A DNA stretch of 47,318 nt from a virus (Duplodnaviria > Heunggongvirae > Uroviricota > Caudoviricetes), in IMG/VR virus record IMGVR_UViG_2675903417_000001, positions 1 through 47,318 of that record. One strand, given 5' to 3'. Positions 17,866-18,766 of this stretch are shown here, in pieces. The position numbers and the translations under genes are program-made. Position 1 is the first letter of the stretch. Each line of letters starts with the position of its first letter. Under the pieces are notes generated by a model. That model saw nothing but the letters and a program-made list of their open reading frames with translations. It did not search any database and was not told where the DNA came from.

Positions 17866-17955
17866 TTATTTCCCTTCTGTTTGCTTATCCCACTCTTCTC
17901 GGAATTTGGATGGGTTGTCGAAGCCCTGAGAGCATGAACAAACTTTGATTACCAT
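17866..17955 (-). CDS. possible 29-aa coupled small ORF
   Basis: ATG overlaps upstream stop (TAATG at 17953-17957); encodes MVIKVCSCSQGFDNPSKFREEWDKQTEGK; ends 5 nt before TerS start. Confidence 0.2.
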   Translation of the reverse strand: MVIKVCSCSQGFDNPSKFREEWDKQTEGK

Positions 17956-18149
17956 TACTTAGCTCCTTCCTGCTTGCCTGTGTTTGATGTCGTTTCAGCA
18001 GCAGCCCCAGAGCAATTAACGCTACCCGCAACACCATATCCATAACCAGTCTTGAAGAAATTGTTGCCAGTAAATTGGTTAACAATCTTCCCGCAGCACG
18101 GGCAGCGTTGGCATTGGCAATAAGGGGATTGATTATTCCAGTGATACAT
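17955..18149 (-). CDS. small Cys-rich / Gly-rich protein
   Basis: ORF 17955-18224; likely start Met26 (ATG 18149) overlapping upstream gene end by 17 nt; 'CQCQRCPCCGK' cluster then Gly-rich tail. Confidence 0.35.
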   Translation of the reverse strand: MYHWNNQSPYCQCQRCPCCGKIVNQFTGNNFFKTGYGYGVAGSVNCSGAAAETTSNTGKQEGAK

Positions 18150-18522
18150 CTTGTTTCTCCTGAATGAATGGCAGGAAGTGATTAACCATCCTGTCCAGCA
18201 TGTAACAGTACGTCTCGTTGGCATCTTCAGGCCTTGTCGTCACGCCGACATCAGAGCAAACGTAAAAGCAGACGTGGGCGCACTCATGAACGAGCGTAGC
18301 GATCTGCTGATCGAATACTCCAATCAGATAGCATCGCTCACCCGTATCAGTGTTTTCATAGTTGCTTGCAAGCCCAAGATTGAATGGCTTCTCATCCCCG
18401 CTGCCGCCAAGGAATTTATCAGCGTGCTGAAACTGTTCTCTGGTTGTTGCGAGGTAGACGTGTGCACTTTGAAACAGCGGAATGGTGAACGCCGGGAGTT
18501 TGTGCCATTTGGCCTTAGCCAT
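18133..18522 (-). CDS. hypothetical protein with HExxH motif (zinc-metallopeptidase-like)
   Basis: 129-aa ORF; 'ATLVHECAHVCFYV'; start 1 nt after upstream stop. Confidence 0.5.
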   Translation of the reverse strand: MAKAKWHKLPAFTIPLFQSAHVYLATTREQFQHADKFLGGSGDEKPFNLGLASNYENTDTGERCYLIGVFDQQIATLVHECAHVCFYVCSDVGVTTRPEDANETYCYMLDRMVNHFLPFIQEKQDVSLE

Positions 18523-18523
18523 A

Positions 18524-18766
18524 TCACACTCCAGCGGTGAACAGGTCTAACGCCTCCTTCGATTTACGCACCGCTTCGATAGTACGGGTCGTGATATCTG
18601 AATTAGCGCCGCCTGACTGGAAGTGAATTTTAAATAGCTCAAGCTTCAGCTCGTCAGTACCAATGAACTGAAATGCTTCTTCTGCTGCTGCGTTCTGGTT
18701 CATGACCAGTTTGTAAATCTCTAACTGGAATTTCTGTTCTTCAGTCATGGGAATAATCTCTGCCAT
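18524..18766 (-). CDS. hypothetical protein (80 aa)
   Basis: ORF in track; first gene of a coupled chain upstream of terminase. Confidence 0.45.
   Translation of the reverse strand: MAEIIPMTEEQKFQLEIYKLVMNQNAAAEEAFQFIGTDELKLELFKIHFQSGGANSDITTRTIEAVRKSKEALDLFTAGV

Follow-up and report, generated by a model that had tools for sequence, protein, structure and literature searches.

A tightly linked chain of four small accessory genes, one encoding a putative minimal zinc peptidase, between rha and the terminase of a P22-like prophage

IMG/VR record IMGVR_UViG_2675903417_000001, analysed here over all of its 47,318 nucleotides (the window), is a P22-like prophage of E. coli, a Lederbergvirus with Sf6-type packaging. 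In its lysis-terminase cassette region, between a rha-like regulator gene and the small terminase subunit gene terS, lies a chain of four open reading frames (ORFs) of 80, 129, 64 and 29 amino acids (aa): ORF1, ORF2, ORF3 (p64) and ORF4 (p29). Identified from the ORF list and by reading the sequence, they occupy the minus strand from 18766 to 17866. All four are protein-coding and under purifying selection. ORF1 and ORF2 are conserved phage ORFs that were already known; p64 and p29 are real, mostly unannotated micro-genes outside described families. On balance, we lean towards reading the segment as late-expressed, translationally coupled accessory genes for a DUF2560 protein, a minimal zinc peptidase, a metal-binding micro-protein and a 29-aa linker micro-protein. 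We see in it an unremarkable mosaic hotspot for accessory genes and not a peptide-antibiotic locus.

The four genes are tightly packed. A single nucleotide separates ORF1 from ORF2 (TGA-T-ATG), ORF3 starts inside the end of ORF2 with an overlap of 17 nt, ORF3 and ORF4 share one nucleotide in TAATG, and the stop codon of ORF4 lies 5 nt before the terS ATG at 17860. About 6-7 nt before the ATG of all four ORFs, within the preceding sequence, there is a GGAG; that of ORF3 belongs to the Shine-Dalgarno (SD) sequence AGGAG at 18161..18157, 7 nt before the ATG at 18149. A first-pass annotation of this DNA had already described the chain, its coupled geometry and its distance from terS as we find them. 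It had taken all junctions for 1-nt gaps or stop/start overlaps, which is right for ORF1/ORF2 and ORF3/ORF4; the 17-nt overlap of ORF2 and ORF3 is the sole correction needed. Since the start codons coincide with the ends of the preceding genes or fall inside them, each preceded by a GGAG, ribosomes would probably pass from gene to gene and on into terS. A consensus-match scan found no promoter or terminator on the minus strand within 17866-18766. As the genes have neither of their own and share the strand of the lysis and packaging genes, they are probably part of the late transcript.

The chain recurs, with identical junction logic, in the diverged contig L193, where its order is DUF2560-HExxH-63 aa-30 aa. 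Codon-based comparison with this contig (Nei-Gojobori) gives omega values of 0.16 for the DUF2560 gene, 0.03 for the HExxH gene, 0.35 for p64 and 0.17 for p29. Between p64 and its counterpart in another contig, L099, omega is 0.20 in the annotated frame and 1.19 and 1.08 in the other two. We regard the chain as more than chance because of its recurrence in L193, this frame-specific selection and the invariant motifs described below.

ORF2 matches PHROG 1365, a family of ‘unknown function’ (E 2.1e-37 over residues 1-125), and so do 61/61 diverse relatives of ORF2. A word-indexed search of a set of 5.8 billion proteins returned 206 homologues; an exhaustive profile search gave 847 clusters at 50% identity, and the 150 of these that are listed range from 69 to 216 aa in length. 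Across the 61 relatives, which are 24-49% identical, only M1, G50, H79, E80, H83 and E103 are invariant. H79, E80 and H83 are invariant in 39 close sequences too: the HExxH that the first-pass annotation had seen in LVHECAHV, at residues 77-84, is kept in near and distant homologues alike.

The AlphaFold2 (AF2) model of ORF2, with a predicted local distance difference test (pLDDT) score of 84, consists of a four-stranded β-sheet, a backing helix, the HExxH helix at residues 74-92 and a helix at 103-127 that starts at E103. From the alignments and this model, ORF2 has the conserved, α-helical HExxH of a zincin. The glutamate that might serve as third ligand, E103, is invariant and placed by the model at the start of the last helix. 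Taken together, the HExxH...E pattern suggests a minimal zinc peptidase of the gluzincin type. Because of this pattern and the omega of 0.03, ORF2 is best read as a zinc-dependent hydrolase, and most likely as a peptidase.

The protein would then be a single-domain zincin of about 125 aa. Its zinc ligands would likely be both histidines of HExxH and a glutamate 20 residues downstream, with the glutamate of HExxH as the likely catalytic base. On inspection, its N-terminus (MAKAKWHKLP...) has no signal peptide or membrane segment. We picture a soluble cytoplasmic zinc peptidase that would cut a specific protein late in infection; its target might be a protein of the host, serving defence or housekeeping, or one of the phage, involved in assembly or lysis. 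The gene is dispensable, since many relatives of this prophage, including P22, Sf6 and HK620, do without it at this site.

ORF2 resembles the minigluzincins and SprT/Wss1 in being small (about 110-130 aa) and single-domain, with the sheet preceding the active-site helix, HExxH within a helix, and a glutamate in the next helix as a possible third ligand. It differs from SprT-like proteins and other gluzincins in that the Pfam SprT-like profile scores below threshold and matches in the PDB are non-significant. In BFVD, 28 structural matches of ORF2 reach E<1e-3; every one is a small, uncharacterised phage protein, the hosts are many, and a few carry the label SprT-like or metalloprotease. One source names P0029, a protein 57% identical to ORF2, ‘SprT-like family protein’.

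Named relatives of ORF2 occur in well-known phages. Orf129 of phage L, Orf-129 of ST64T and gp70 of epsilon34 are 59-61% identical to it over 96% of its length, with 61% for the ST64T and epsilon34 proteins, and occupy the same slot, after the DUF2560 gene and before dec or terS. HkcC of P22 and HK620 is a paralogue, 35% identical, whose gene follows gene 16, next to sieA. All of them share the HExxH...NE(T)Y motif with ORF2. The window's allele lineage occurs in E. coli and Atlantibacter, and the ribosome-binding site and start of p64 lie within its 3' end; the Salmonella alleles lack them. Among complete E. coli genomes, 29/5426 contain ORF2. In Atlantibacter and one IMG/VR contig (L099 2320-2777; L045 3193-3650), the match to the window, at 84.5% DNA identity, takes in p64, p29 and no more of the zincin gene than its 3' half, starting near residue 65. 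Comparison of these sequences points to a recombination junction inside the zincin gene, the 5' half in L099 and L045 being that of another allele group.

The third gene of the chain, p64, encodes a cysteine-rich peptide. Its motif CxCQRCxCCGK is invariant in 8/8 aligned homologues, down to 38% identity, and includes five cysteines within nine residues, plus QR and GK. Relative to L193, omega is 0.17 for the N-terminus and 0.51 for the tail. We take p64 for a small protein in which a knuckle, probably binding metal, is joined to a variable tail. The five-cysteine knuckle at the N-terminus is its only constrained part, and the metal is most likely zinc. Of the two ideas put forward in the first-pass annotation for this peptide, a zinc knuckle or a modified-peptide or microcin precursor, the first is the better one.

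As in Cys_rich_CPCC (PF14206) and zinc-ribbon micro-proteins, p64 has a CPCCGK. It differs from them in lacking a second knuckle and in its five cysteines within nine residues, and a comparison with PF14206 gave no match at E<=1. A 74-aa relative of p64, encoded in an unrelated gene chain (L098), adds a second knuckle, CPIC, in the ribbon-like pattern of four-cysteine ribbons; its score against PF14206 is 10.4 bits (E 0.61) for a cut-off of 24.5. In another contig (L043), a homologue with 38% identity keeps CxCQRCPCCGK and starts 1 nt after the stop codon of a different upstream gene.

Altogether p64 is rare: it was found in 6 protein clusters, 15 IMG/VR contigs and 23/5426 E. coli genomes, in a single GTDB species representative, from Atlantibacter, and in none of 50,697 phage records. 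Neither p64 nor p29 matches anything in Pfam, PHROGs, NCBIfam or PADLOC, and the PGAP annotation of sister prophages (L001, L002) leaves the 273 bp of p64 and p29 empty.

The last gene, p29, is defined by its core, GFDNPSKFRDEWDK, whose position varies among related phages. Eight sequence variants and 4 gene contexts all preserve p29 as an ORF that begins with ATG. The core follows p64, comes straight after the zincin gene in L055, precedes a Dec-like gene in L014 and lies upstream of the DUF2560 gene in L081. In-frame fusions exist with p64 (P0123) and with DUF2560 (P0268). In most contexts, the end of p29 falls at, or a few nucleotides before, the next start codon; in the window, p29 holds the purine-rich stretch upstream of the terS ATG. 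Its recurring place is immediately ahead of the next gene, whose ribosome-binding region it carries. Sister prophages join the same chain to a terS of P22-gp3 type, and their homology to the window breaks 4 nt into terS, which is why we take p29 to mark a mosaic junction. In a comparison with DUF2740 (PF10872), p29 reached 13.3 bits for a cut-off of 27, over 14 residues (E 0.07). The peptide is too short to serve as a query, and a search with the fused protein P0123 added only P0268.

ORF1, the first gene, is a full-length member of Pfam PF10834 (DUF2560): the match (E 1.1e-43) scores 147.7 bits for a gathering cut-off of 25 and covers residues 5-76 of 80 and profile positions 1-72 of 72. It also matches PHROG 571. 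It is the protein known as Orf80 in P22, gp67 in Sf6 and HkbM in HK620. At the DNA level, ORF1 is present with 94-98% identity in 107 phage records and 979/5426 complete E. coli genomes. In P22, Sf6 and HK620 the DUF2560 gene is followed by an unrelated gene for a protein of 59-63 aa (Orf59c/HkbN), whereas here the zincin gene, p64 and p29 take this place. The first-pass annotation had allowed that the genes might turn out to be known P22 late-region ORFs of established non-accessory function. ORF1 (P22 Orf80) and ORF2 (Orf129 of phages L and ST64T) are indeed known, but their function is not established.

The surroundings of the chain were compared in a census of 80 IMG/VR loci, chosen for the presence of the zincin and covering the region from Rz to terS. 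Varying subsets and orders of Rha, DUF2560, zincin, p64, p29, K49 (a 49-aa lysine-rich protein, PHROG 2423), p110 (110 aa), Dec (the decoration protein of phage L, PHROG 3018) and PhageMetallopep are found there, joined to at least 7 types of terS. The lysis-to-terminase junction is therefore a hypervariable accessory region, in support of the first-pass annotation, which had called it a moron hotspot. In about 65 of the first 80 loci, the zincin gene occurs without p64 and is followed by dec, K49, PhageMetallopep or directly by terS. The order in phage L is Orf129-dec-3-2-1. In many Salmonella prophages dec (134 aa, PHROG 3018) stands between the zincin gene and terS (L081 3390-3794; L107 552-956), and a 172-aa Dec-like variant follows p64 and p29 in L014.

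Outside this slot, the zincin gene comes after the lysis genes in two lambdoid phages, mEp554 and MagusPhagus, and in two Autographiviridae, RSB3 (Ralstonia) and Axy23 (Achromobacter), and it stands among early-looking genes in L104 and phi1_146050. In two non-enterobacterial-looking viral contigs (L167 3031-6163, L177 3043-6160), it has a GNAT acetyltransferase gene on one side and a P22-type portal gene on the other, and overlaps both. A wider survey of the contexts of distant zincins used a narrower alignment, which mostly returned the same enterobacterial loci and only 4 new contexts.

A second uncharacterised phage HExxH protein, PhageMetallopep (PF18894, about 210 aa), is encoded immediately upstream of terS in such loci; it is not encoded in the window. 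Its gene directly follows the PHROG 1365 gene, before terS, in at least 9/80 loci (e.g. L015 3376-4014). In L190 (6071-6727) it lies about 2.2 kb downstream of the zincin gene; in PHROG 513 the protein is labelled ‘transposase’. Homology between PHROG 1365 and PhageMetallopep was considered and rejected: hhalign gave a probability of 1.4%, and its alignment spans no more than 21 columns, at the motif.

Like lambdoid morons and accessory cassettes such as dec of phage L, the genes occupy a hypervariable slot, are patchily distributed and have mosaic junctions at gene boundaries. A classic moron has its own promoter and terminator, whereas the genes here are coupled into the late operon. A compositionally foreign insert was likewise rejected, since the GC content of 0.44-0.51 is like that of the flanks, and the segment has no Rfam match. 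Given the lack of a promoter, terminator, RNA family or GC anomaly, and the mosaic context, we describe the genes as operon-embedded accessory cassettes and not as strict morons.

Several observations weigh against the functions that we favour for these genes. Against SprT-like (PF10263), ORF2 scores 12.7 bits for a cut-off of 25.6, over residues 73-91 only, and 0/61 of its relatives match any Pfam family at E<=0.01. Against TIGR04267 (aKG-HExxH peptide beta-hydroxylase), it scores 18 bits for a cut-off of 40, over 30 of 177 positions; 4/61 relatives match this family weakly (E<=0.05). Altogether, ORF2 falls into no named peptidase family, the matches being below threshold and local to the motif. 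Searches of solved structures gave no significant match of its fold to a zincin catalytic domain, and profile searches of PDB sequences gave only non-significant matches to astacins, at the motif. Not all HExxH proteins are peptidases: some are hydroxylases. The reality of the genes, the selection on them, the conservation of the motifs and the mosaic context are shown here; metal binding, proteolysis, late expression and any target are putative. Literature searches on the function of DUF2560, hkcC, Orf129, SprT-like proteins with terminase, HExxH proteins with anti-defence, and ‘putative phage metallopeptidase’ found nothing. For p64, the AF2 model is uninformative (pLDDT 40). For p29, the coding evidence draws on a small number of substitutions (17 in 29 codons), and its conservation could partly reflect a boundary or ribosome-binding element at the nucleotide level.

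Other functions can be proposed for the zincin. As a lysis-associated factor or counter-defence protease, it would act late and cut a host protein, either envelope-linked after holin triggering or an effector of abortive infection. We judge this unlikely. Such a role would fit the position of the gene after endolysin or spanin genes in four lineages (P22-likes; mEp554 and MagusPhagus; RSB3; Axy23), in the last of which it overlaps the end of the lysin gene, and it would also fit the patchy accessory spread among E. coli genomes and the very strong purifying selection. The unrelated PF18894 gene that often adjoins the zincin gene suggests that the slot collects proteases. However, the N-terminus of ORF2 offers no signal peptide or membrane segment, and the site after the lysis genes is a permissive insertion point, at which linkage may mean nothing functionally. 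No model of known defence or anti-defence systems is matched either: at E<=1, none of the four proteins matched PADLOC. No literature was found on such a function either.

It is also conceivable, if rather improbable, that the zincin, perhaps with p64 and p29, is an accessory factor of virion assembly or DNA packaging, like Dec, bound to or acting on the capsid, portal or terminase. The gene lies directly upstream of terS genes of at least 7 types and, in L167 and L177, directly before a portal gene that it overlaps; the paralogue hkcC follows gene 16, for an ejection protein, in P22 and HK620; phage L and many Salmonella prophages have the gene of the capsid protein Dec between zincin and terS; and the gene that comes next, for head or packaging functions, is in every case coupled to p29. 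Yet this locus lacks a zincin gene in P22, Sf6 and HK620, which assemble and package all the same, and P22-like phages need no prohead protease. Moreover, in RSB3 and Axy23 the zincin gene comes after the lysis genes at the genome end, away from terS, and in L104 and phi1_146050 it keeps company with early-looking genes.

A bolder version of the peptidase reading, which we hold to be doubtful, would see in PHROG 1365 a widespread but so far overlooked class of minimal zinc proteases of phages with a fold variant of its own, acting late on a host or phage protein, for instance in counter-defence, lysis or assembly; ORF2 and ORF3 would then form a two-component unit, with p64 as metal donor, regulator or substrate.

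For p64 and p29, it might be asked whether one or both are genes at all, the 273 bp between ORF2 and terS being instead a recombination boundary or the translation-initiation region of terS. The blank left there by PGAP, the lack of family matches, the frameshifted or fused versions in databases (P0123, P0124, P0126) and the mosaic junctions exactly at the p29 end would all suit this idea. It is nonetheless very unlikely in view of the frame-specific selection; moreover, the ORF, start codon and SD sequence of p64 are kept at 64% and 38% protein identity, p29 remains an ATG-initiated ORF in four different contexts, and the stretch matches no RNA family, terminator or promoter.

Two other reading frames in this part were rejected. 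An extended, 89-aa version of ORF3 (open frame 18224..17955) has an extension that is not conserved, and divergent homologues use the ATG at 18149. A hydrophobic 66-aa ORF with a TTG start (17885-18085, minus strand), which overlaps p64 and p29 off-frame, is probably spurious, the off-frame omega being >=1. This 66-aa ORF is also present in sister loci, and P0126, from the databases, is a chimera in which a frameshift joins p64 to that frame.

Finally, the idea that ORF2 and ORF3 form a pair resembling a microcin or a ribosomally synthesized and post-translationally modified peptide (RiPP), in which the HExxH protein modifies or processes p64 with its conserved N-terminus as leader and its variable tail as core, is the least credible. 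It can appeal to TIGR04267 as the best NCBIfam match of ORF2 (E 0.0022) and of 4/61 relatives, to the p64 start embedded in the ORF2 end, which suggests coupled synthesis, to the omega values of the p64 N-terminus and tail, which resemble leader/core logic, and to the presence of every close p64 homologue within about 300 bp of a zincin gene. Against it, that match covers only 30 residues around HExxH at less than half the cut-off, 129 aa leave no room for a 2-oxoglutarate domain, and the HExxH family mostly occurs without the cysteine-rich peptide; in L043 DUF2560 separates the zincin and peptide genes, and around the distant motif relative in L098 no zincin gene is among the ORFs listed within about 1 kb on either side. 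No transporter, immunity gene, recognised modification gene or double-glycine leader was found nearby, PADLOC gave no match, and the neighbours (rha, DUF2560, terS, TerL) are all phage late genes: the locus has no linked set of precursor, modification enzyme, export and immunity, and the microcin or modified-peptide reading of the first-pass annotation finds no support.

The features of the segment and its flanks are collected in Table 1.

Table 1 Coordinates and assignments of the small-gene chain and the genes that flank it.
Feature	Coordinates	Strand	Assignment
ORF1, 80 aa	18524..18766	-	DUF2560 family protein; Pfam PF10834 and PHROG 571
ORF2, 129 aa	18133..18522	-	Minimal HExxH...E zincin-like protein; PHROG 1365; paralogue of HkcC
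ORF3 (p64), 64 aa	17955..18149	-	Micro-protein with a Cys5 knuckle, CxCQRCxCCGK, and a variable Gly/Ser/Thr-rich tail
ORF4 (p29), 29 aa	17866..17955	-	Micro-protein, core GFDNPSKFR(D/E)EWDK
terS, Sf6-type small terminase subunit	17435..17860	-	Pfam Sf6_terminase 1.8e-44 and PHROG 1482; downstream end of the chain
rha-like regulator gene	18994..19536	-	Pfam Phage_pRha 1.7e-21 and ORF11CD3 4.7e-26; upstream of the chain
22-aa micro-ORF MSGLDNGLYPTRDNLTDIPFNG	18779..18847	-	Candidate fifth member, from the ORF list; stop 13 nt before the ORF1 ATG

The rha and terS flanks are confirmed by Pfam. Downstream, terS is followed by the genes for TerL and the portal protein; upstream of rha lie the genes for Rz/Rz1, the endolysin and the holin. 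The coupled chain may start one gene earlier, at the 22-aa micro-ORF, because the N-terminus of this peptide matches the annotated orf25 of P22 (MSGLDNGLYHRL...; translation MSGLDNGLYHRLDIIRFIPSMWGGG). The spacer between rha and the DUF2560 gene also contains a 28-aa ORF, MNLQPYGKKDSLWWRTDGKTSVIAEAIQ (18844-18930, minus strand). At the corresponding place, the Salmonella P22-like contig L081 encodes an almost identical peptide; family searches with the 28-aa ORF gave no match.

The terminator-like hairpin nearest to the chain is at 19709..19690 on the minus strand, between Rz and rha, with an 8-bp stem, 6 GC pairs and a T-run. Late transcripts would have to pass it by antitermination to reach rha and the chain. 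Further upstream, an Rz1-type ORF (19936-20151, minus strand) with a lipobox-like LLGVSAC is embedded out of frame inside the Rz gene (19883-20320), forming the usual spanin pair. ARAGORN detected no tRNA genes in the whole window; sister prophages and Sf6 have genes for tRNA-Asn and tRNA-Thr between Q and the holin gene.

The locus bears on no long-standing question, and what is gained is mainly annotation: genes for a 64-aa and a 29-aa micro-protein in a stretch that RefSeq leaves blank. As such, p64 and p29 add to the evidence of hidden translated small ORFs in the late operons of phages. PHROG 1365, for its part, is a large phage-specific family with invariant putative catalytic residues, no Pfam entry and no significant match to a solved structure. 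It is a reasonable target for screening phage accessory genes for counter-defence or lysis functions.

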